A stretch of DNA of 64,000 bases from an uncultured Candidatus Saccharibacteria bacterium (GCA_964589975.1 CAZPVH010000004.1:10469-74468), one strand, 5' to 3'; counted from the stretch's first letter, positions 3,150 through 59,265 are shown. Notes: generated by a model from the letters alone, not told the origin. Made by a program: numbers and translations.

Positions 3150-3176
3150 GGGCTCCGCTACTGCTCCGCTAAAAGA

Positions 3177-3208
3177 GAAAAGCCGCACCTTACGGCGCGG
3201 CTTTTCGA
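3177..3208. terminator. intrinsic terminator (bidirectional)
   Basis: AGCCGCACC-TTAC-GGCGCGGCT hairpin plus T-run between convergent genes. Confidence 0.5.
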
Positions 3209-3249
3209 TCCCGCAGGAGGAAGAGGAGTATGTTTTGCGGAGTACCCCT

Positions 3250-8775: not shown

Positions 8776-8795
8776 AGTCTCGTGATATAGTGTTG

Positions 8796-8926
8796 TGATG
8801 AATCCCGTTAGTGACCGCGGTCGCTAGCGAGAATTCGTTATCTGAATATGGAATTCTTACTTTATACAAATATTAGTACTATGGCAGTTTGCGGGACGAC
8901 CGCGACCTGTCACTAACGGGATGAAT
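8796..8926. repeat. MITE-like palindromic element (family 2) with about 24-bp terminal inverted repeats and GATGAAT/ATGAAT flanking direct repeat
   Basis: Left arm GAATCCCGTTAGTGACCGCGGTCG, right arm CGACCGCGACCTGTCACTAACGGGAT. The right arm ends at the ATG of the downstream helicase gene. Confidence 0.45.
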
Positions 8927-10858
8927 TACCTCGAAGGCCTAAACGATCGGCAGAAAGAGGCCGTCCTTCATAAGGACGGCCCTTTGCTCATTGTCGCTGG
9001 CGCGGGCGCGGGGAAGACAAAGACTATCACACACAGGATTGCGTACCTCATCGAGCAAGGTGTGCCGGGAGAACAAATTCTTGCCGTAACCTTCACAAAC
9101 AAAGCCGCCAAAGAGATGAATGAGCGCGTGCAAAGCTTGGTAGCACTGCCGGATTTCGCCGGGAGACCGACTATTTGTACATTTCACTCGCTGGGTGTCA
9201 GGATCCTTAAAGAAAACGCTAGAGCACTCGGACTTTCGCGATTTTTCCCAATCATGGATGACGATGACAGTATGTCTCTCATTAAAGAATCCATGAAAGA
9301 GCTCGGCATTGATCCGAAGACTGTTTCGCCTCGTTCGGTTCGCTCATTCATCTCGCGCTCGAAGAATGATTTTTTATCGGAGCAGGATTTCTCCGATCAG
9401 AATGTGAAGTCGTATCAGCAAGCCATCAATCTTTCTGTTTGGAAAAAATATGAAGAGAAGAAAAAAGCCGCAGGAGGACTTGATTTTGACGACCTCTTGC
9501 TCGAGACAACAAAGCTTCTTCAGAAGAATCCAGAAATACTCGCGGTATATCATGCTCGCTGGAGATACATTCATGTGGATGAGTATCAAGACACGAATAA
9601 AGTGCAGTATGTGCTGACGCAGCTCCTTGCCAAGGCGAGCCGGAACATCTGTGTGGTTGGTGATGGTGACCAAAATATTTACAGTTGGCGTGGTGCCGAC
9701 ATTGTAAACATCTTGAACTTCGAGAAGGACTATCCCGACGCTAAAGTGGTACTACTCGAGGAGAATTATCGCTCGACGAAGACGATACTTCACGCGGCGA
9801 ACTCAGTTATAAAGAAGAATAAAGAACGAAAAGAAAAGAATTTATTTACATCAAACGATGATGGTGACATGGTCTCACTTTTTGAAGCCTATAACGATAG
9901 AATCGAAGCTGAATTTGTGGCCGAGAAATGCGTCGAGCTCATGGATAAAGGAATTAAGCCGGAAGACATTGCCGTTCTTTATCGCGCGAACTTCCAGTCG
10001 CGTCTTCTGGAAGAAAAGATGCTCACATATTCCGTGCCTTATCAGGTACTTGGGGTTAAATTCTTTGATCGAAGAGAGGTGAAAGATGTTTTGTCGTACC
10101 TGCGGCTCGCGTTTAATCCGAATTCCTCTGTCGATATCCGCCGGGCAATATCTTTCCCAAAGCGCGGGCTCGGGAAAGTCGCTGTCGAGAAAATCCTTGC
10201 AGGAGAAAAGGATAAATTACCGATGAAGACACTTATAAAAGTGAATCAGTTTTTTGAATCTATCGAAAAGATGCGCGAATATGCCGAATCGCATCTTCCA
10301 TCAGAGACGTTGAAGTATGTCATCAAAGCTTCCGGCATAGAAGCGGAACTAAAAGCCGGGAAGTCTGACGACGATATCGACCGGCTTGAAAATGTCATGG
10401 AAATGGTTTCGTTCGCAGCTAAATATGACAGTTTTCCACCGATCGAGGGTATTGAAAAACTTATCGAAGAAGCGAGTCTTGCATCTGATCAGGATTCGCT
10501 CTCGTCCGAAGGCGAGGCGAAGAAAGAAAAGAATAAGCGTGGTGTGAAGCTTATGACCGTGCATGCCTCAAAGGGGCTCGAGTTTAAATACGTGTTCATC
10601 GTCGGACTTGAAGGCGAGCTTTTTCCGCATGTCCGCGACGACATGTCGGATATCGAAGAAGAGCGCCGCTTGTTTTACGTTGCCATTACGCGCGCTCGCG
10701 AGAAACTGTTCCTGACTTACGCCACGCTTCGCCAGCTTTTTGGTGAGACCAAACTCCAAATGCCGTCGCAGTTCCTAAATGATGTCCCGCAGGAAATACT
10801 TTTCCGCGAGGAAAGGGAGTCGAGCGGGTTTGGGAATAATGTGATATATCTAGATTGA
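8921..10858 (+). CDS. uvrD: UvrD/PcrA-family ATP-dependent DNA helicase
   Basis: GAGAGKTKT Walker A; helicase motifs TFHSLG, VDEYQDTN, VGDGDQNIYSWRGA, YRS; C-terminal motif VHASKGLEF...LFYVAITRA. Confidence 0.85.
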   Translation: MNYLEGLNDRQKEAVLHKDGPLLIVAGAGAGKTKTITHRIAYLIEQGVPGEQILAVTFTNKAAKEMNERVQSLVALPDFAGRPTICTFHSLGVRILKENARALGLSRFFPIMDDDDSMSLIKESMKELGIDPKTVSPRSVRSFISRSKNDFLSEQDFSDQNVKSYQQAINLSVWKKYEEKKKAAGGLDFDDLLLETTKLLQKNPEILAVYHARWRYIHVDEYQDTNKVQYVLTQLLAKASRNICVVGDGDQNIYSWRGADIVNILNFEKDYPDAKVVLLEENYRSTKTILHAANSVIKKNKERKEKNLFTSNDDGDMVSLFEAYNDRIEAEFVAEKCVELMDKGIKPEDIAVLYRANFQSRLLEEKMLTYSVPYQVLGVKFFDRREVKDVLSYLRLAFNPNSSVDIRRAISFPKRGLGKVAVEKILAGEKDKLPMKTLIKVNQFFESIEKMREYAESHLPSETLKYVIKASGIEAELKAGKSDDDIDRLENVMEMVSFAAKYDSFPPIEGIEKLIEEASLASDQDSLSSEGEAKKEKNKRGVKLMTVHASKGLEFKYVFIVGLEGELFPHVRDDMSDIEEERRLFYVAITRAREKLFLTYATLRQLFGETKLQMPSQFLNDVPQEILFREERESSGFGNNVIYLD

Positions 10859-10859
10859 C

Positions 10860-10944
10860 GCTCCGCAAAACATGAGATTTCCTCACCCTGCGGGAGCGCT
10901 TCACTAGGTCCTCGGGATTCGAAAATCTCATGTTTTGACTCCGC
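10860..10944. repeat. MITE-like palindromic intergenic element (family 1, short copy)
   Basis: 15-bp perfect TIR CAAAACATGAGATTT/AAATCTCATGTTTTG flanked by GCTCCGC / ACTCCGC; the internal CTGCGGG...CTCGGGATTCG motif is shared with the elements at about 22.1 kb and 43.8 kb. Confidence 0.5.
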
Positions 10945-18466: not shown

Positions 18467-18916
18467 GTAGAAAGTAGTAAGTCGTAAGTCGCACGAACGA
18501 TGAACGAGCAAATAAAAAGAGGGCACAAGGATCTTGTAGTATGGCAAAAGGCCATGGACTTGGTCGAGGAAATTTATAAGTTGATTAAAGAGCTTCCAAA
18601 GGATGAGAAGTTTAATCTGGTTTCACAGATAAGCAGATCAGCTGTATCTATACCCTCAAATATTGCCGAAGGGTATAGAAGGGGGTCTGATAAATCATTC
18701 AAACAATTTTTATTAATTGCCTTCGGTTCAAGCGCCGAACTTGAAACTCAAATTGAGCTGGTCAAGAGACTGGTTTTAGCCCCCAATTTTGATTTTAAAG
18801 CAGTTGATAATCTCTTGTCTGACACCATGAGATTACTGAACGCTTTCATAAAGAAACTAGGTTGATCAAAGAGTTATCCGTGCTACTTACGACTTCCGAC
18901 TTCCAACTTACTGCGT
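18461..18916. repeat. IVS-like hairpin element: heptamer-repeat inverted repeats enclosing the four-helix-bundle gene
   Basis: Left arm GTAAGTAG-AAAGTAG-TAAGTCG-TAAGTCG-CACG (18461–18499). Right arm CGTGCTACTTACGACTTCCGACTTCCAACTTAC (18879–18916). The proximal stem pairs about 17 of 20 nt. Confidence 0.5.
18500..18865 (+). CDS. four-helix-bundle protein (23S rRNA intervening-sequence protein family)
   Basis: 121 aa; WQKAMDL...ELPKDEKFNLVSQISRSAVSIPSNIAEGYRRGS...ELETQIELVKRL matches the TIGR02436-type family. Confidence 0.8.
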   Translation: MNEQIKRGHKDLVVWQKAMDLVEEIYKLIKELPKDEKFNLVSQISRSAVSIPSNIAEGYRRGSDKSFKQFLLIAFGSSAELETQIELVKRLVLAPNFDFKAVDNLLSDTMRLLNAFIKKLG

Positions 18917-19999: not shown

Positions 20000-22072
20000 A
20001 TGGGACTTCTAGATCTCCTCTCGGGGAAAAAACCAAAGAATCCGAAGAAAGAAATCCTGCCGGTATTGCCGGAAGAGATTTATCAGGCTGCGACTTTGGA
20101 GCTTCAGGATATTTTGGCGCCGTCGGCTCTTAAAATATCGCCGAAGGCCCTGAATCTCGGCGACAAAATCGCCCGAACGTATTTCGTCATTTCATACCCA
20201 AGGTTCCTATCAGACAATTGGTTCACTCCAATCATAAACCTCGACAAGATCTTCGATATTGCGATCCACATCCATCCCTTGGATACGAACACCATTCTCC
20301 GAAAATTTCAAAAGAAAGTGGCTGAGGTTCAGAGTCAGGTTAATGTTAGAGAATCAAAAGGCCTTGTGCGTGATCCGGTTCTCGATACGGCGTATCAGGA
20401 TCTTGAAGCTCTTCGTGACTCTTTGCAACAGGCTCAAGACAAGATGTTCGACGTTGGACTCTACATCACCATTTACGCGGATTCCATGCCGGAGCTTTCG
20501 AAGATTGAGAATGAAATCAAGTCGATCCTGGAAGCCAAGCTTGTCTATATCAAGCCAGCGCTATTTCAGCAGGATGTTGGTTTCAATAGCGTGGCGCCGC
20601 TTGCGACAGACTTCTTGGCTGTTCATCAGAAGATGAATACCGAGCCTCTTTCATCCATCTTTCCATTCGTCTCTTTCGATCTTTCGTCCGACAAGGGAAT
20701 TCTTTACGGCATAAATCGTCACAACTCTTCTCTGGTTATTTTCGACCGCTTTTCGCTCGAAAACTATAACTCGGTCACGTTTGCCAAGTCCGGTTCGGGT
20801 AAATCATATTCAACCAAACTAGAGATTCTCCGAACGCTCATGTTCGACGCGGAAGTCATCGTGATCGACCCCGAGAGGGAATACGAATATCTCTCTGAGG
20901 CCATTGGTGGCCGGTATTTCAATATTTCGCTCTCGTCCGAACACCACATCAACCCTTTTGATTTGCCTATTCCGACCGCCGATGAGACGCCGGAAGACGT
21001 TCTTCGCGCCAACACTATCCAGCTGGTTGGAATGTTTCGTATCATGCTCGGGGGCCTCACTCCGGAGGAAGACGCGATTATCGACAAGGCTGTGACAGAG
21101 ACCTACGCTCTAAAAGACATCACGTCAGATTCGGATTTTGCAAACATAGAGCCGCCTCTCCTTTCTGATTTCGAAATGGTTCTCGGTGGAATTGAAGGCT
21201 CAGACTCAATCATGACTCGGCTAGCCAAATACACGAAGGGTTCCTGGAAAAATTTCATTAACCAGCCGACAAACGTTGATATTAACAAGCGTTTTATCGT
21301 TTTCTCTGTTCGCGACATGGAAGACGATTTGAAGCCGGTTGCGATGTATATCGTCACGCACTTTATCTGGAACGCCGTCAGGAAGAATCTCAAAAAGCGC
21401 CTGCTTATCGTTGATGAGGCCTGGTGGATGATGAAGAGCGAAGATACTGCTTCCTTCCTTTACAGTATCGCCAAGCGAGGACGAAAATACTTCCTCGGCC
21501 TCTCAACCATCACTCAGGACGTGAATGACTTCGTGGAGAGCCAGTACGGCATGGCTATTGTCACGAACTCTTCGATGCAGCTACTCCTCAAGCAGTCCAC
21601 GAGCTCGGCCGACGCTCTCCAAAAAGTCTTTAACCTGACGGACGAGGAAAAATATCTCCTGCTCGAATCGGAAGTCGGCGAGGGCATCTTCTTTGCGGGC
21701 TTGAAGCATGTTGCCATAAAGGTCATTGCCTCATACACCGAAGATCAGATCATTACTTCGGACCCATCCCAGGTTTTGGCGATCAAGAAGGCTAAAGAGC
21801 AATTCCGAGAAGACGAAAAGGAGTTCGTGCGTACGGAAGGCGAACGTTTGGCAGGGGCCATGAATATTGAAGAAAGGCCAGAACCGACGTCATCTCCGGT
21901 CGAAGAATCGCCGACTAGACCCGCACAAGTTGTGGCTGAGCCAGAAAATCCAATTCCTCCCGCAAAGTCTACGGGGCCGAGGCCTCAGACAGAAACAGAG
22001 AATCTGGCCGAAGAGAGCGAGGGGCTGTCTGACGAGATTGATGATTTGGAGAAGATGTTTAAAGAATATTAG
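20000..22072 (+). CDS. virB4: VirB4/TrbE-family type IV secretion ATPase (ATPase domain)
   Basis: Walker A FAKSGSGKS, Walker B LLIVDEAWWMM, conserved VirB4 C-terminal motifs; acidic C-terminal tail. Confidence 0.85.
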   Translation: MGLLDLLSGKKPKNPKKEILPVLPEEIYQAATLELQDILAPSALKISPKALNLGDKIARTYFVISYPRFLSDNWFTPIINLDKIFDIAIHIHPLDTNTILRKFQKKVAEVQSQVNVRESKGLVRDPVLDTAYQDLEALRDSLQQAQDKMFDVGLYITIYADSMPELSKIENEIKSILEAKLVYIKPALFQQDVGFNSVAPLATDFLAVHQKMNTEPLSSIFPFVSFDLSSDKGILYGINRHNSSLVIFDRFSLENYNSVTFAKSGSGKSYSTKLEILRTLMFDAEVIVIDPEREYEYLSEAIGGRYFNISLSSEHHINPFDLPIPTADETPEDVLRANTIQLVGMFRIMLGGLTPEEDAIIDKAVTETYALKDITSDSDFANIEPPLLSDFEMVLGGIEGSDSIMTRLAKYTKGSWKNFINQPTNVDINKRFIVFSVRDMEDDLKPVAMYIVTHFIWNAVRKNLKKRLLIVDEAWWMMKSEDTASFLYSIAKRGRKYFLGLSTITQDVNDFVESQYGMAIVTNSSMQLLLKQSTSSADALQKVFNLTDEEKYLLLESEVGEGIFFAGLKHVAIKVIASYTEDQIITSDPSQVLAIKKAKEQFREDEKEFVRTEGERLAGAMNIEERPEPTSSPVEESPTRPAQVVAEPENPIPPAKSTGPRPQTETENLAEESEGLSDEIDDLEKMFKEY

Positions 22073-22075
22073 GAA

Positions 22076-22245
22076 GCTCCGCAGAATGCTTATTTAGGAA
22101 TCCTCCGAGATGCGCGCCCTCCATCCCTCGTAGCCCTCGGAATGGAGAAAACTGGCGCGCCCCCTCACGAAAAAGCTCCTAAAAGGGAGCTTTTTCTGCG
22201 GGTTCGTTCTCGGATTCCTAAATAAGCACTCTGCTCCGCGGAGAG
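22076..22245. repeat. MITE-like palindromic intergenic element (family 1, long copy)
   Basis: 21-bp TIR AGAATGCTTATTTAGGAATCC / GGATTCCTAAATAAGCACTCT with nested GC-rich hairpins. Internal CTGCGGGTTCGTTCTCGGATTCC is conserved with the copy at about 43.8 kb. Flanked by direct GCTCCGC on both sides. Confidence 0.5.
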
Positions 22246-22314
22246 CGGAGAGGTCTCAATAGTTTTCCTACTAGCAGCTTATAACTTCGGACTCGGTTTT
22301 GATATAATATTCCC

Positions 22315-22899
22315 ATGAATCAAGACAATACGGACCCGAAGACTATCAACTCTGATGACCAGAATACGATGGCTGATGCGGGCGTCGACATAACCGGCGG
22401 ATCGGGGGAGAATATTGCCGAAGGCGAGAAGGAACAGGCGTCGGAAGTCATGGATATTGATAGTTCGGCAGATGATGCTACGGCTGAAAAGGCCGGCATA
22501 AAGTTCGTCCAAACCGACAAAACTGATTTATCCGCGATGGCTGAGGCCAAGCAGAAAGCAGCATCTGACTCAAGGGCTCTAGAAGCTGAGTTTAAGGCGG
22601 AGTTTCCGGATTTCAAGGGTCCGCTTAAACCAGAATCAGAAAATGCTGTTATGGGTAAAGTAACTTCGCTCGGAACACTCCTTGCTAAAATTCAGGAAAA
22701 GCTTGGCTTAAAGAAGACATCGGTCCGGGAAGAGCTTGGAAGTCTCAAAAAGATGAAGGATGCTATCGGAAAAGACATTGAAGAGATCAAGGAGCTTGAG
22801 AGTTCAGAGCAAAAGATTAAAGAAGAGATTGGCAAAATTGAGTCCATTAGGAAAGAGGTAGAAGATATAGAAGAGAAGCTCGGAGAAGATTTGAAGTAG
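22315..22899 (+). CDS. acidic coiled-coil hypothetical protein
   Basis: 194 aa, very acidic; preceded by the same TGATATAAT-N6-ATGAAT module as the gene at 4612. Confidence 0.55.
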   Translation: MNQDNTDPKTINSDDQNTMADAGVDITGGSGENIAEGEKEQASEVMDIDSSADDATAEKAGIKFVQTDKTDLSAMAEAKQKAASDSRALEAEFKAEFPDFKGPLKPESENAVMGKVTSLGTLLAKIQEKLGLKKTSVREELGSLKKMKDAIGKDIEEIKELESSEQKIKEEIGKIESIRKEVEDIEEKLGEDLK

Positions 22900-27031: not shown

Positions 27032-27109
27032 TTAGATTCTATTGGTTAGAGAAAAAACGAGCCGACAGGCTCGTTTTTTCTCCATAAGTTATTAACTGAT
27101 CAACAGAAG

Positions 27110-30626: not shown

Positions 30627-30754
30627 ATATTTAATTGTTACTCCTATTAAATTTTAAACCCTTAATAAAATAGCCCTGGAGGCCAGGACAATCACGCTTC
30701 TATAATAATATTCCACATCAAATAAGTCAAATGTTATGTGCGGCGTGATAAAAT

Positions 30755-36468: not shown

Positions 36469-36618
36469 AAGAAAAATCAAAAACTTCGCATTAGCGAAGT
36501 TTTTGATTGAGTGGGTTTTCCACAAACTGTATGACAAATGTCAACAGGGAAGAGCCATGAAGTGATATTATAGAAGAAGCTTTAGAAATTATTAGTCGCA
36601 TTATTTTTATTATTTGTT

Positions 36619-39600
36619 ATGTCATCTTTTAGAACCAAAGTCGCCGCCGCAGTTTTCACAATCGTCGCTCTCACATTCGGGCCATACGCGGCTCTCGCGC
36701 AGAACTCCTGGACTCCGCCGACACAGGCTCCGACCGGCGGCAACGTTCCGGCTCCGGTAAACGTCGGAATATCCGACCAGACCAAGCTTGGACCTTTGTC
36801 GATAAAGGGCGCTTTCAAGAGCCTCTCCACTTCTACGCTCTCTGGTGATGTTGTCACTCAGCCTGACACCAGTGGCTTTGGCTTCATGGCAAACTTTCTT
36901 GAGACATTCTTCTATAACAATGTCTATGTGGGAGATGCAACTCCTTTCAATGGTTCCGGTAATGAAATCCCGGTAGACTTCAATGTCTACGGTAAGTTCA
37001 AATATCAAACAGCAGATAATGCCGGCAATCCTGAGCCAGTAAATCCTGGTGACATTCTCGTGGCCAATGACGAGGGCTACACCGAATGGGCTGACCCATC
37101 AACTATTTCAGGTGGCGGTTCAGACCCAAGATTGCCAAATGGTACATCAAAAGGCGACACATTATATTGGGATCCGACCACTAGTAAATGGGTGGTAGCA
37201 TCAAATGTTCAAATAAGTCCAAATGTTTTTGAGTCTCTTCGAGCTACTGGCACAAATGGAGGACTTCATGTTTTGAATGACGGCTCAGTGGTTTCTGATT
37301 ACCGAGCTTCTTTTACCGGCGGACTCAAAGTAACTCTTCCGAGCGGCGCTCCGACACCTGGACAGGTTCTTGAAACATCAGACAACCAAGGAAACATAGC
37401 TTGGGGAGATGGACTACCTCCGGGAGGAAATAATGGTGATGTTTTGGTGTGGAACAGTACTACTAATCAATGGGAATCGACGACTTTCAATGTAACTGGA
37501 AGTCTTCCTCCGGGTAACTCAACCGGCCAGTCTCTTCGATGGACCGGTACTGCATGGCAGGTGACGGATGCTGTTAAGACTCCGAGCGATACAACTGTCC
37601 AGATTGGCGCCAACGCAAGCAACACCGCAGTCATGATTGGAAACACGGTCAACACGTCGTTCATGCAGATCAATTCCAACAGTTTAAATTTAAACCCTGA
37701 CGCTATCAGTATCCCTCTAAACGGCACAGCCGCTGCTGGTAAGGTTCTGGCCTCAAGTAATAACACTGGTGCCCTGGCTTGGACAGATGTCTCAAGTCTT
37801 CCCGGGGGACTTCCCGCAGGAACAACTGGTCAGACCCTTTGGCACAACGGCACATCATGGCAACCTACAAGCAAACTTATTTGGAACGGCGCAGGAGAAG
37901 TCTTAAAGTTTGAAGGATCGGGTCTTCTTTTGAAGGGGGAGGGCGGCGCACTCGACCCAGCTGAGGGACGATTCTTGCAGTCTAAAAATGATCAGGGGGA
38001 AGTAGTATGGAATAAATACTTTGTTTATAAAGACATACCTTATGTAGATGATGGTGTAGACAAGCATATCGACTCTATCGAGATTCTTGAAAGCAATGGT
38101 GATGATACCAGGACTTCTGGACTGGCTAACTATGGCGAATATACTTACCTTGCGAATCGTTTAGAAGTCGATGGTCTTACGTTCCTAAATAACGACACAG
38201 AGGTTAACGGCGAGTCTATATTAAATGGCAATACCACAATTTCTACTAGTGGAGACCTGTGGCTTGAGGGAATCGACGCCCTGCCACCGACACAGATGGA
38301 TCTTAATGGCAATCCTGTATCGATGAATTACAACCTAGAGTCTCTTTGTATAAATAGACAAGATTTCAAGGTCGTCCTCTGTGATCCAGGCGCGGGCAAA
38401 CCAAAGCCTCAAGTTATTGGAACATTTACAGAGACTTTTGGTCCTGGTTCTGGCACAGGCGTATCATTCCCAAGACCTAATCAGGCCCCAGGTCCTGTTG
38501 AGGTGAAAATGTGTGCTGCTGGCGGTGGTGGTGGTGGTGGTGGACGTGGATTTGAGATTGATCTTAATGAATATGGTCACGGTGGTGGTGGTGGTGGTGG
38601 TGGTGGTAAGGGGCAATGTTCGACAACTACAATAAATCCTGGTGATGGAGAAGAAATCACATGGACATCGATAGGCGCAGGTGGTTCTGGAGGAAGTCCG
38701 GGAAATATTGATGTGGTCTATGGTTACGGCGAGCCGTATCAGGTAAATGCTAATACTGCAGCTACAAGCGGTCAGCCTGGAGGAGGTACTCAGGTTTATT
38801 TTGAAGGAAATCTATTGGCTAGTCTAATGGGCGGATCAGGTGGTTATGCGGGCGGAAATGCTAGTACTAGCGGACAAGGTATCGGTGGAAGTGGTGGTTC
38901 GAGTGATTTAACAGTTGCTACTGTTTGGTGGCATAAGGGTGCCAACGGTCAAATAGACTCAGAGGGTGGCAATGGTGGTCATGGTGGTAAAGGAGAAGAT
39001 AATGCTTCTGGGCAGGGTGGTGAGGGTGGTGGTTCTGGTCAATTTCAAAGTGGCCAACAATTTGGTGGAAATGGAATGCAGGGAGCTGCTGGTTATGGCG
39101 GCGGTGGCGGTGGCGGCGCATCTGGAAAGTGGTACGATTACGCCTATACTTTAAGTAATCAGAATGATGATGATAACGCTTACGTTAGTCATGGAGGCTG
39201 GGGCGGAAATGGCGGAAGTGGTTATGTTGCTATTACCTACAACATATATCTTCCAGATCCGGAACCTATTACTGAACAGCTCTTTACAGAATCAGGCACG
39301 TTTAACATAAATGTTATTCCGACAAATGTTGTTGATGTTACTATCGAAGCTTGGGGAGGCGGCGGTGGCGGAGGACTTGCTCAAAACGCTGTTGGTGGTC
39401 TGTCCGGAAGCCACAATAGATACGGCGGCGGCGGAGGTTCTGGAGGCTATGCGAAGACGATTATTCCGAGAGCAAACCTCACAAATACTCTGAATGTAAT
39501 CGTTGGCGGAGGAGGAGCAGCCTCAGCTAATGGTGGACCAAGTAGTGTTGTCGGGGGCGGTCAGATTGTTACGGCATACGGTGGTGAGGGCGGAAAAGAC

Positions 39601-39861
39601 TCGATCCAGAACGCAGCATGTACAGCCGGAGGTAATGGAGGTACGAATAACTACGGACAGGATCAGGCGGTAGACGGAGGCGACGGAGGAGCTTGTGGAG
39701 TTCTCCAGGTCAACCCACCTGTTGTCGGGGCTGGCCAGGGTGGAGTCCAGTCTGTCGGTGGTTATGGCACAGGAGGCAACGGAGCTAAACTGTTCGGTTC
39801 AGGAGCTAGTCCTGTAGCGGCCCAGAGTGGTCAGGCCGGACGAGTTCTCATCTCTTGGTAA
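36619..39861 (+). CDS. giant secreted Gly-rich repeat protein (1080 aa)
   Basis: Signal peptide; N-terminal half has at least 6 degenerate G(D/Q)xL-x(8–12)-W repeats of about 38 aa; C-terminal half has poly-Gly runs and GGxGG repeats. Confidence 0.65.
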   Translation: MSSFRTKVAAAVFTIVALTFGPYAALAQNSWTPPTQAPTGGNVPAPVNVGISDQTKLGPLSIKGAFKSLSTSTLSGDVVTQPDTSGFGFMANFLETFFYNNVYVGDATPFNGSGNEIPVDFNVYGKFKYQTADNAGNPEPVNPGDILVANDEGYTEWADPSTISGGGSDPRLPNGTSKGDTLYWDPTTSKWVVASNVQISPNVFESLRATGTNGGLHVLNDGSVVSDYRASFTGGLKVTLPSGAPTPGQVLETSDNQGNIAWGDGLPPGGNNGDVLVWNSTTNQWESTTFNVTGSLPPGNSTGQSLRWTGTAWQVTDAVKTPSDTTVQIGANASNTAVMIGNTVNTSFMQINSNSLNLNPDAISIPLNGTAAAGKVLASSNNTGALAWTDVSSLPGGLPAGTTGQTLWHNGTSWQPTSKLIWNGAGEVLKFEGSGLLLKGEGGALDPAEGRFLQSKNDQGEVVWNKYFVYKDIPYVDDGVDKHIDSIEILESNGDDTRTSGLANYGEYTYLANRLEVDGLTFLNNDTEVNGESILNGNTTISTSGDLWLEGIDALPPTQMDLNGNPVSMNYNLESLCINRQDFKVVLCDPGAGKPKPQVIGTFTETFGPGSGTGVSFPRPNQAPGPVEVKMCAAGGGGGGGGRGFEIDLNEYGHGGGGGGGGGKGQCSTTTINPGDGEEITWTSIGAGGSGGSPGNIDVVYGYGEPYQVNANTAATSGQPGGGTQVYFEGNLLASLMGGSGGYAGGNASTSGQGIGGSGGSSDLTVATVWWHKGANGQIDSEGGNGGHGGKGEDNASGQGGEGGGSGQFQSGQQFGGNGMQGAAGYGGGGGGGASGKWYDYAYTLSNQNDDDNAYVSHGGWGGNGGSGYVAITYNIYLPDPEPITEQLFTESGTFNINVIPTNVVDVTIEAWGGGGGGGLAQNAVGGLSGSHNRYGGGGGSGGYAKTIIPRANLTNTLNVIVGGGGAASANGGPSSVVGGGQIVTAYGGEGGKDSIQNAACTAGGNGGTNNYGQDQAVDGGDGGACGVLQVNPPVVGAGQGGVQSVGGYGTGGNGAKLFGSGASPVAAQSGQAGRVLISW
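38521..38612 (+). repeat. (GGT)n microsatellites inside the Gly-rich gene
   Basis: Two runs of 7–8 GGT units encoding Gly8–Gly9. Confidence 0.7.
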
Positions 39862-39883
39862 ACAAAAATTATTAATAACAGCA

Positions 39884-39909
39884 AAAAACCCGGATATCCG
39901 GGTTTTTTG
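39884..39909 (+). terminator. intrinsic terminator
   Basis: AAAAAACCCGGATATCCGGGTTTTTTGC, a perfect hairpin with a T6 run. Confidence 0.7.
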
Positions 39910-39914
39910 CTACA

Positions 39915-43711: not shown

Positions 43712-43769
43712 GGGTTATGGTTGTTTTTCTGAATATTACCATGAAAGCCTATAAAAGTCAAATTGGGCT

Positions 43770-43930
43770 CCCCAGAATGTGTTATTTGGGATTCTGCGAG
43801 ACGCCCGCCAGCCTTCCTCCGAGCACTCGGAAGGCTCATGAAGCACTAGTAGGCGGGCGCCCTCACGGCCTGTGCGCAGGCCTGCGGGTTCGTTCTCGAA
43901 TCCCAAAAAACACATTCTGCTTCGCTGGAA
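43770..43930. repeat. MITE-like palindromic intergenic element (family 1, long copy)
   Basis: 20-bp TIR GAATGTGTTATTTGGGATTC / GAATCCCAAAAAACACATTC; internal CTGCGGGTTCGTTCTCGAATCCC; about 80% identity over both ends to the copy at about 22.1 kb. Confidence 0.5.
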
Positions 43931-50775: not shown

Positions 50776-50812
50776 GGATCCCGTTAGAGGCCGCGATCGC
50801 GGACGATAACGG
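50776..50812. repeat. short palindromic element related to family 2 (collapsed TIR-only copy)
   Basis: ATCCCGTTAGAGGCCGCGATCGCGGACGATAACGG shares the ATCCCGTTAG..CCGCG..TCGC arm with the element at 8796–8926. Confidence 0.35.
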
Positions 50813-50822
50813 AAAAAAATTT

Positions 50823-51560
50823 ATGAAAACACAAAACTCACAAAAGAATACTGAAGTTTCAGAAACCTCAAGATCGCGATCTGCCTCTAACGGGATGGAA
50901 GCAACCATCTACAACAAAGAAGGAAAAGCAGCAGGGAAAATAGAATTGCCAGCGGATATCTTTGGTCTCTCTTGGAATGCCGACTTGGTTCACCAGGTCA
51001 TGACTTCGATGAACCAGAACGCGCGAGCGAACACAGCTTCGACTAAAGATCGATCTGAGGTCTCGGGTACTGGCGCGAAGCCTTGGAAGCAGAAGGGAAC
51101 AGGCCGCGCGCGACATGGTTCACGCCGTTCTCCAATCTGGGTCAAAGGAGGCGTGGCTCATGGTCCGAATCCTGACCGAAACTACACAAAGAAGATCAAC
51201 AAGAAGATGAGCGCCAAAGCTCTCTTTACCGCAATATCAAAGAAGATGAAAGACGGAGAGGTTCTTTTCGTCGATACGCTCTCGATGGGAGAGATGAAAA
51301 CGAAGGAAGCTGCAAAGGCACTCATGGCTCTTGGTGGCATTACCGGCTTCGAGCGCCTCCAAGGCTCAAAGAAAGTTGTTGCGCACATCGCAACCGCGAA
51401 GCGCGAAGATAATACCGCAAAGAGCTTCAACAACATTCCGTTCGTCGAAGTTGGCGAGATCCGAAACATCAATCTTCTCGACGTCATCAATCATCGTTAC
51501 CTTATCATTGAAAGCCCAAAGGAGTCTGTCGAATTCCTGGCCTCTAAGCTAGCAAAATAA
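50823..51560 (+). CDS. rplD: 50S ribosomal protein L4
   Basis: PWKQKGTGRARHGS...GGVAHGP; N-terminal 24-aa extension. The start could be the internal ATG at about 50895. Confidence 0.92.
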   Translation: MKTQNSQKNTEVSETSRSRSASNGMEATIYNKEGKAAGKIELPADIFGLSWNADLVHQVMTSMNQNARANTASTKDRSEVSGTGAKPWKQKGTGRARHGSRRSPIWVKGGVAHGPNPDRNYTKKINKKMSAKALFTAISKKMKDGEVLFVDTLSMGEMKTKEAAKALMALGGITGFERLQGSKKVVAHIATAKREDNTAKSFNNIPFVEVGEIRNINLLDVINHRYLIIESPKESVEFLASKLAK

Positions 51561-59217: not shown

Positions 59218-59229
59218 ATTTAATGAAAC

Positions 59230-59265
59230 AAAAGCTCTCGTTTGACGAGGGCTTTTGTTTTTTGG
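59230..59265 (+). terminator. intrinsic terminator after rplE
   Basis: AGCTCTCGT-TTG-ACGAGGGCT hairpin plus a T-rich run; breaks the usual rplE-rpsN linkage. Confidence 0.6.

Follow-up and report, generated by a model that had tools for sequence, protein, structure and literature searches.

What kind of unit is the palindromic DNA that directly follows a VirB4 gene in an uncultured bacterium, and does the heptamer GCTCCGC on both of its sides belong to that unit or to its insertion target? The DNA in question, called element A below, is 164 bp in length and occupies positions 22076-22239 (+ strand) of a 64,000-nucleotide stretch recorded as Candidatus Saccharibacteria (GCA_964589975.1 CAZPVH010000004.1:10469-74468), referred to here as the window. 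An earlier description made without database searches, the sequence-only reading, had offered both target-specific insertion and membership of the unit as explanations of the heptamer. Comparison with related genomes leads us to lean towards element A being one long-type member of a family of mobile palindromic repeats that are small, non-coding, non-autonomous and confined to a Paceibacteria clade, similar to repetitive extragenic palindromes (REPs) and MITEs (miniature transposable elements with inverted repeats). With somewhat greater assurance, the heptamer, or tag, is considered a probable part of the unit and not a target-site duplication.

Anatomy of element A and its family

The terminal arms, the nested hairpins and both GCTCCGC flanks described by the sequence-only reading are all present in the sequence, and both flanks are exact. 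The features of element A are listed below with their window positions.

22076-22082, + strand: left boundary tag GCTCCGC, exact; its final GC supplies the outermost main-stem pairs
22081-22110, + strand: left P1 (main-stem) arm, GCAGAATGCTTATTTAGGAATCC followed by TCCGAGA, from inverted repeats and folds
22112-22160, + strand: GC-rich stem P2, GCGCGCC (22112-22118) and GGCGCGC (22154-22160) around the hairpin CTCCATCC...GGAATGGAG
22162-22168, + strand: conserved motif CCCTCAC, which pairs with CTGCGGG around P3 in the predicted fold
22169-22196, + strand: hairpin P3, GAAAAAGCTCC-TAAAAG-GGAGCTTTTTC, with 11-nt arms that are 100% complementary
22196-22212, + strand: conserved 17-mer core CTGCGGGTTCGTTCTCG, exact in copy B
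22208-22234, + strand: right arm of P1, TCTCGGA plus GGATTCCTAAATAAGCACTCTGC
22233-22239, + strand: right boundary tag GCTCCGC, exact
22240-22260, + strand: purine-rich tail GGAGAGCGGAGAGGTCTCAAT, adjoining the right tag

The terminal inverted arms (22081-22103 and 22212-22234) are 23 nt in length and paired at 22 of 23 positions (96% complementary). The main stem is lengthened to about 30 bp, with an internal loop, by TCCGAGA and TCTCGGA at 22104-22110 and 22208-22214. The inner hairpin of P2 has the arms CTCCATCCC and GGAATGGAG, and P3 is laid out as A-tract, GC core, loop, GC core and T-tract, reading A5-GCTCC-loop-GGAGC-T5. The predicted fold of the whole element is a three-way junction. 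The sequence-only reading had proposed folding the element as RNA, and the folds gave z-scores of -10.3 for the + strand RNA and -10.6 for the - strand RNA. Single-stranded DNA (ssDNA) gave a z-score of -9.5. The folds are far beyond those of the shuffled sequences, of which 0/200 folded as well. The arm sequence of element A has no second occurrence in the window, and shuffles predict 0.

Further copies were found in the window and in syntenic loci of relatives, which were reached via VirB4 proteins and via the neighbour protein of copy B; the family sample amounts to about 222 kb from 11 loci. The census comprises about 14 copies in seven related genomes. Twelve full copies are distributed over five genomes (A-D in the window, E in locus L114, F in L112, G1-G5 in L134 and H1 in L135), and partial copies cut by contig ends are present in L137 (J1) and in L130, the latter at the site of B. 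The L110, L125, L126 and L136 loci contain no copies. The other window copies are as follows.

43767-43925, + strand: copy B, long type, flanked by GCTCCCC and GCTTCGC
10860-10944, + strand: copy C, short type, 1 nt past the stop codon of a UvrD-like gene, flanked by GCTCCGC and ACTCCGC
3152-3245, - strand: copy D, composite, in the gap between convergent genes whose stop codons are both followed by tags

Copy B, at 43.8 kb, had been reported to resemble the right end of element A. The resemblance is real (the 17-mer and CCCTCAC are exact, and a 57-nt stretch is 77% identical), and its extent had been understated, for A and B align end to end with 81% column identity. Their consensus fold is a common three-way junction of 46 pairs, 9 of them compensated and 0 broken, and the compensated pairs include pairs of P2. 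Copy B is identical in two Logan contigs from the source organism. Its sequence orientation is that of A but the surrounding gene run is on the minus strand, so B is antisense to its neighbours. The flank said to be shared with the 10.9-kb copy (C) was confirmed on the left and recurs as ACTCCGC on the right. Copy D carries GCTCCGC twice on the + strand and ACTCCGC on the - strand, and its interior holds a remnant of the short-type core and a central terminator hairpin (3177-3206).

The order in a full copy is GCTCCGC, an arm starting A(A/G/T)AA, the interior, a second arm that is complementary to the first and closes in a T-run, then GCT(C/A/T)CGC. The arms, A-rich on the left and T-rich on the right, form a near-perfect stem of 15-30 bp. 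Of the 12 full copies, 9 have an exact GCTCCGC as left tag and 3 as right tag; only the right tag of G5 (ACTTCGT, three off) deviates by more than one mismatch. The flank therefore recurs at other copies, and the refuting condition named by the sequence-only reading, flanks not duplicated at other insertion sites, does not hold. The inner GC of each tag supplies the outermost stem pairs and the rest of the tag is unpaired. Across the aligned copies, the heptamer is the most conserved part of the family unit.

The arms behave differently from the tags. Counted within copies, pairing extends to 180 of 187 arm positions (96%); a left arm set against the right arm of another copy is paired at 55% of positions on average. 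Pairs of copies show 4-13 compensated arm positions out of 17, with 3-12 of 17 matching, and the arm termini read AGAATGC, AAAACAT, ATAACGC, AAAAAAC or AAAATTA. These statistics were computed in register from the tags because MAFFT alignments of all types together misplace the arms; the alignments used cover the long, short and F-type interiors. The tags and a few single-stranded cores are conserved by sequence and the arms by complementarity alone. The term 'terminal inverted repeats' in the transposon sense, used by the sequence-only reading, is for this reason not retained.

Interiors are modular. The long interior (A, B, E and the L130 copy) consists of P2, CCCTCAC, the terminator-shaped P3 and CTGCGG(G)T.CG; P2 is found in A and B, is reduced in E and is missing from short copies. 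The short interior (C, H1, G1, G4 and J1, with the remnant in D) reads CCTCACC-CTGCGG(G/A)AGCG...CTAGGTCCTCGGGATTCG, its core being CTGCGG(G/A)AGCG. The F-type interior (F and G5) reads CGCGTTC-hairpin-CCGCTAAAGACTC-terminator hairpin-T(C/T)CCGTAT, and its hairpins show compensated changes. G2 has an interior of its own, and G3 is a bare hairpin. The motif CCCTCAC is identical in A, B, E and L130 and appears as CCTCAC in C, H1 and G4 and as CTTCAC in J1. Copy E, from another genome, has the layout of A with entirely different arms, a compensated P3 (GAAAAAACTCCC...GGGAGTTTTTTC) and the core CTGCGG-TACGTTCGC. In 10 of 12 copies, the fold of the complementary strand is more stable by 2-12 kcal/mol, probably owing to the G/U-rich composition of that strand, and the arm mismatches are too few to decide the strand.

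Motifs resembling the tag occur inside elements (GCTACGC in the G3 loop, inverted GCGG(G/A)AGC in the short core and TCTCCGT in the F-type) and beside them (two tandem tags to the left of D and two inverted TCTCCGC to the right of A). Many intergenic regions in L137 and L112 consist of a small hairpin preceded by several CGTAG and followed by CTACG motifs. These arrays may represent a variant form of the family's tag system, with GCTACGC as a minority tag variant and a REP-like GTAG. The following were located.

L137:12044-12153: CGTAG/CTACG intergenic array
L137:9113-9237: CGTAG/CTACG intergenic array
L137:9898-10000: CGTAG/CTACG intergenic array
L112:12056-12156: CGTAG/CTACG intergenic array

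Wider scans gave no further members. The 17-mer CTGCGGGTTCGTTCTCG had 109 matches in a scan of genome contigs, all in unrelated taxa and none with a CCTCAC partner; the pattern CCTCAC-N6-36-TGCGGGTTCGTTCTCG had 10 matches in metagenome contigs, all by chance; and scans of viral contigs gave chance matches or none. Exact patterns are too strict here, since family members diverge fast. A sensitive blastn search of phage and plasmid records with 22073-22260 returned no match. Two contig ends of short-read assemblies, L130:1 and L137:17089, lie inside family copies. Breaks of this kind are expected if the repeat is multi-copy, so short-read metagenome-assembled genomes (MAGs) would undercount the family. 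At L134:14-955, the gene caller ran the open reading frame (ORF) of KsgA/RrnaAD upstream through G1, giving 313 aa as against 269-276 aa in relatives; the long ORF is a repeat-induced annotation artefact.

Two other origins of element A were considered and rejected. There is no conserved reading frame, A and B being open in different frames, and a coding element was ruled out on that ground. A tRNA-like origin was prompted by the motif GGGTTCG; ARAGORN predicted neither tRNA nor tmRNA anywhere in the window, and a T-arm complement to the motif is lacking.

Turnover between relatives and origin of the tag

Site A, the slot 3' of VirB4, measures 242 nt of intergenic DNA in the window and 46-115 nt in six genomes without an element (L110, L112, L114, L125, L126 and L136). 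After the stop codon in L126, the intergenic DNA resumes at AGTTTTCCTAC, which corresponds to window position 22261, so that the extra segment in the window spans about 22073-22260. The tail at 22240-22260, which contains two opposite-strand tag-like motifs (TCTCCGC twice) and resembles the tail of copy B (similarity to 22252 / 43938), is missing at this closest empty site and was therefore probably part of the inserted segment. Elsewhere, site A is occupied by G2, of a different type, in L134 and by the short-type H1 in L135. The VirB4 of L137 is 96% identical to that of L135, and its site A is empty; in turn, L137 has J1 at site E, where L135 has no element.

Other sites vary likewise. At site C (UvrD/KsgA), the window has copy C and L134 has G1; L110 and L114 have no element there. 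Site E, between the convergent PG_binding and ClpP genes, holds a plain A-tract/T-tract terminator hairpin alone in the window, L110 and L135, the long-type E in L114, the F-type F in L112, the short-type J1 in L137, and in L134 G3, a bare 19-bp hairpin between tags. In L134, G4 and G5 lie in opposed orientations upstream of nusA. Among the relatives compared at site A, whose VirB4 proteins are 87-96% identical, one slot thus contains a long copy, a short copy, a third type or nothing. The fact that occupancy differs among such close relatives indicates turnover, and hence that the family is probably mobile.

The origin of the tag was approached through the same slots. The empty orthologous slots that were examined, those of six genomes at site A and further ones at sites C and E, contained no lone GCTCCGC, which makes the tag most likely a part of the unit. 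By chance, both strands of 64 kb together would hold about 9 GCTCCGC, and over 90% of this DNA is coding, so pre-existing targets just past stop codons would be very rare. The unequal conservation of left and right tags, and the recurrence of tag-like building blocks inside and next to elements, point in the same direction. With regard to the two explanations left standing by the sequence-only reading, the flank as part of the unit is thus favoured, and target-specific insertion with duplication is less favoured, there being no lone tags at the empty slots examined. In the whole window GCTCCGC is not over-represented (14 observed, 8.9 expected); its signal is its position at element boundaries. 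A DNA uptake sequence was ruled out, as the heptamer is not enriched outside those boundaries.

The position of the copies is also regular. In 10 of the 13 placed copies (A, C, D, E, F, G1, G2, G3, H1 and J1), the tag begins 1-3 nt past the stop codon of a co-oriented gene, with the element in sense orientation. P3 of A, E and D and the corresponding hairpin of the F-type have the shape of plain terminator hairpins, of which the window contains the following.

27047-27084: plain bidirectional terminator hairpin, P3-like in shape
36475-36508: plain bidirectional terminator hairpin, P3-like in shape
39880-39911: plain bidirectional terminator hairpin, P3-like in shape
59226-59260: plain bidirectional terminator hairpin, P3-like in shape

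In most copies P1 ends in a T-run, and element A lies after a stop codon and before the next promoter. Because the elements are stop-adjacent and sense-oriented, replace a plain terminator at site E and contain a terminator-shaped P3, a putative role as a terminator or as a 3'-end-protecting hairpin in the transcript of the upstream gene is plausible.

The stop codon that precedes the tag is TAG in 8 of 10 cases (window 22070, 10856 and 3147, and L112, L114, L134, L135 and L137). TAG ends 13 of the 62 window genes, and the excess beside elements may be due to chance, as only 3-4 independent gene sites are represented.

Mobilisation, rival explanations and known repeats

The comparisons establish that the family exists, that its members are homologous across sites and genomes, that it is non-coding and constrained in structure, and that close relatives differ in which type they carry, if any. 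If element A is a mobile palindromic repeat as proposed, the tag would be a recognition element of the unit, read together with the hairpin as is the GTAG tag of REPs, and movement would be carried out by a trans-acting enzyme, specific for structure plus tag, encoded elsewhere in the genome. Recognition would have to depend on tag and structure and not on transposon termini, because the tag and a long hairpin are conserved while the arm sequence is free. Copies differ at half of their arm positions and yet the arms are near-perfect, which suggests that pairing is kept by selection on hairpin function or by the correction of one arm against the other in a folded intermediate. At its site, the element would then act as a terminator or 3'-end-protecting hairpin in mRNA or DNA.

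Several observations weigh against this explanation or parts of it. Pfam scans of 40 window ORFs, which are housekeeping and type IV secretion system (T4SS) genes, found no transposase, recombinase or mobilising gene. The family sample is small. The boundaries of the inserted unit are inferred, there being no recent pair of empty and filled sites with alignable flanks; in the genomes with empty slots the intergenic DNA has diverged too far to align or to represent true pre-insertion alleles, so a target heptamer may once have stood there. The tags are direct repeats on both sides, as a site-specific duplication or a recombination core would give, and site-specific recombination may have used the heptamer, or its GC or TCC centre, as crossover core. 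The different types found in one slot and one orientation could reflect in-place replacement and not repeated insertion. As for the terminator role, a consensus terminator scan of 21900-22400 did not call P3, probably because its A and T tracts were counted into the stem; copy B has no A/T tracts and is antisense, and G4 and G5 stand upstream of genes.

A classical MITE would be a deletion derivative of an insertion sequence (IS), with a DDE transposase that binds its termini, inserts it into GCTCCGC (or a TCC or CTCCG centre) and duplicates that target. Bacterial MITEs are known from Correia/NEMIS in Neisseria, RUP in S. pneumoniae, bcr1 in the Bacillus cereus group and ERIC, and measure 50-200 bp; some serve as terminators or RNase III substrates, and bcr1 and Correia have fixed flanking duplications (TTTAT and TA). 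Our family resembles them in being a 60-165 bp intergenic, non-coding unit with long inverted termini, identical direct flanks, co-transcription with neighbours and presence or absence among relatives. Assemblies break inside copies as they do for multi-copy repeats, and the order GC-TCC-[GC...GC]-TCC-GC can be read as a 3-bp duplication within a 7-bp target, the inner GC lying in the stem. MITE families, however, keep their terminal sequences, which are transposase binding sites, and their parent IS elements are identifiable. Here the termini vary (3-12 of 17 arm matches), leaving a terminus-binding transposase without a common site; the supposed target was not found in the empty, though diverged, slots examined; and 10 copies lie 1-3 nt past stop codons although only about 9 chance GCTCCGC are expected per 64 kb, 91% of it coding. 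The tags are unequally conserved (left 9/12, right 3/12 exact), no transposase is present among the 40 scanned ORFs, and the 64-kb window contains no autonomous partner IS with the same ends. We therefore regard a classical MITE as rather unlikely.

The closest known kind of element is the tagged REP. REPs have a conserved unpaired tag and stems that vary by complementary changes, downstream of ORFs (PMC3733652). They are defined as units of 20-40 bp with a 6-13 bp stem and a GTAG or CGTC tag at one end; they lie between co-directional or convergent genes, are mosaic and modular, lack coding capacity, and are probably transcribed, acting as terminators or mRNA stabilisers (PMC3733652). The present family likewise has a tag beside a variable complementary stem, a position downstream of ORFs, modularity and no coding capacity. 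It differs in its tag, GCTCC(GC)/(GC)TCCGC in place of GTAG/CGTC, and in having direct tags at both ends, whereas REP dimers are mostly head-to-head or tail-to-tail. Element A, at 164 bp, has a main stem of about 30 bp and two inner hairpins, and even the minimal copy G3 has a 19-bp stem. No RAYT gene was found among the 40 scanned ORFs, and the host belongs to the candidate phyla radiation (CPR), which is not among the phyla listed for tagged REPs (PMC3733652). Placement and complementary stem variation thus agree with REPs, and stem length, tag identity and tag arrangement do not.

This likeness raises a specific version of the mobilisation step, in which an HUH/Y1 enzyme of the REP/RAYT or IS200/IS605 kind would move the element as ssDNA, with the left GCTCCGC as target and the right one as its own cleavage site. 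The hairpin-rich element folds equally well as ssDNA, and, as with tagged REPs, a short conserved sequence adjoins the base of a variable hairpin. The variant GCTACGC reads GCGTAGC on the other strand and so includes GTAG, and intergenic DNA of L137 and L112 is filled with CGTAG/CTACG arrays. Of the two tags, the left is the better preserved, and the three intact window copies are co-oriented within a monotonic GC skew, an orientation sample far too small to test strand bias. A fixed sequence precedes every copy. IS200/IS605 elements insert 3' of a fixed short target and lack a terminal inverted repeat, and their ends have separate subterminal hairpins that do not pair with each other, but here the ends pair over 15-30 bp. 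The 6-13 bp stems of REPs, tagged at a single end, contrast with the 15-30 bp and direct tags at both ends seen here, and the 40 scanned ORFs include no Y1 transposase. Movement by this route appears distinctly unlikely on balance.

Could the repeats instead be structured non-coding RNAs (ncRNAs), either small RNA genes or cis-regulatory elements of 3' or 5' untranslated regions, whose three-way junction and conserved loops would carry a specific function, and so paralogous RNA genes and not mobile DNA? The very strong fold z-scores, the compensated pairs in P1, P2 and P3 between A, B and E, the conserved single-stranded CCCTCAC and CUGCGGGUUCG, and the slightly better fold of the complementary strand in 10 of 12 copies would all fit. 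No Rfam 15 family reached the gathering threshold in the window or in L112, L114, L134, L135 and L137, the best sub-threshold matches being noise (E >= 0.6). Orientation relative to transcription varies (B is antisense, G4 and G5 are opposed), P2 and P3 are dispensable, since the short type and G3 keep tags and arms without them, and the element is missing at the same locus in close relatives. In short copies CCTCAC adjoins CTGCGGG and cannot pair with it, so the motif is conserved at the sequence level. No promoter-like site was called in or beside A, and ssDNA folds alike. An RNA-gene origin is consequently very improbable in our view.

A further possibility is that the direct tags mark a fixed slot past stop codons, in which unrelated hairpin or terminator modules are exchanged by a recombinase specific for tag plus structure. 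Such exchange would explain the varied types in one slot and orientation, the paired yet diverging arms and the lack of lone tags; even so, we consider it quite improbable. Its logic would be like that of attC or REP recognition, but with direct tags and in a genome-reduced CPR host. In integron attC sites, core and inverse core are inverted, pair with each other and are recognised as folded single strands. Our family shares with attC a variable sequence and length, a preserved hairpin, 7-nt boundary motifs and a position directly past an ORF. It differs in that its tags are direct and mostly unpaired (the inner GC alone pairs), in that its neighbours are syntenic core genes (VirB4, UvrD, KsgA, ClpP) and not cassettes, and in that no integrase was found among the 40 scanned ORFs. 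Two other systems offer partial parallels. In Neisseria, the intergenic mosaic elements (NIMEs) consist of RS units between copies of dRS3, a repeat of 20 bp that has inverted ends of its own, and thus also have different internal modules bounded by one short conserved repeat. Rickettsia palindromic elements are inserted in frame into genes and are, like the present family, palindromic repeats spreading in small genomes. Neither has stop-codon-adjacent placement or 7-nt direct tags.

The mobile palindromic repeat that we favour therefore belongs to a known class, that of intergenic palindromic repeats, and the family is newly described in its lineage; a full-text literature search found no paper on MITE- or REP-like repeats in Patescibacteria/CPR bacteria. 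Its unusual traits are the direct 7-nt tags, the free-running complementary arms, the modular interiors and the placement next to stop codons. Patescibacteria genomes are tiny and streamlined; yet the four window copies account for 502 of 5467 intergenic nt (about 9%) of the 64-kb region, with turnover visible at 96% VirB4 identity. The family offers a compact case for how tagged palindromic repeats are recognised and spread, and for how mobile DNA becomes transcription terminators. A practical consequence is that short-read assemblies are interrupted at such repeats (two contigs) and gene callers are led astray by them (one ORF).

Genomic setting and further repeats

Element A is bordered by the following features.

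20000-22072, + strand: VirB4/TraC-like type IV secretion ATPase gene (Pfam P-loop_TraG, AAA_10, DUF87)
22300-22308, + strand: extended -10 box TGATATAAT, outside element A, marking the downstream limit of the slot

The VirB4 gene ends in TAG, 3 nt ahead of element A. Its homologs, 84-90% identical, come from Patescibacteria/'Candidatus Paceibacterota' MAGs, and by this protein similarity the host is a Paceibacteria-type bacterium (Patescibacteria/CPR). The next gene, encoding an acidic protein, extends from 22315 to 22899, with TGATATAAT 6 nt ahead of its ATG. Relatives keep TATAAT or TACAAT followed by 6-7 nt and ATG at this gene, which suggests a leaderless mRNA with a leaderless-type promoter. 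Because the downstream gene has its own TGATATAAT box, element A lies between a stop codon and the next promoter. A consensus promoter scan made no call in or beside element A, nor at TGATATAAT.

The window encodes EF-Tu, ribosomal proteins, NusA, ClpP, trigger factor, PGK, TIM, RecJ and a T4SS-like cluster. Its coding share is 91%, and the intergenic DNA amounts to 5467 nt. The T4SS-like cluster contains a 23S-rRNA-IVP/Avd-like four-helix-bundle gene (window 18500-18865; about 8300-8670 in L112 and L137; L136:10181-10555), which is missing or relocated in other relatives and is thus a small mobile or variable gene.

Upstream of nusA, a hairpin ..CC(N)GG....CCAGGACAATCAC is located at about 30672-30695 of the window (the minus strand is the nusA sense strand). 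It is kept at the same position in L110, L112, L114, L134, L135 and L136, where the remaining intergenic DNA cannot be aligned, and may act as leader or attenuator for the nusA operon. The same intergenic region of L134 (about 20940-20950), L110, L112, L114 and L136 contains a perfect DnaA-box consensus, TTATCCACA, which that of the window lacks.

A second, unrelated palindromic family is represented at 8795-8929 and 50778-50896 of the window, its arms sharing ..ATCCCGTTAG.. and ..CTAACGGGAT... The right arm runs into an ATG that is the actual or possible start codon of the downstream ORF (8921, UvrD-like; 50893, within the ORF 50823-51560), so that the element wraps the 5' end of the gene. 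The largest direct-repeat family of the window is formed by GGT/GGC codon repeats in the gene of a glycine-rich protein of 1080 aa (36619-39861), especially at 38514-39380 (Pfam Gly_rich_2).

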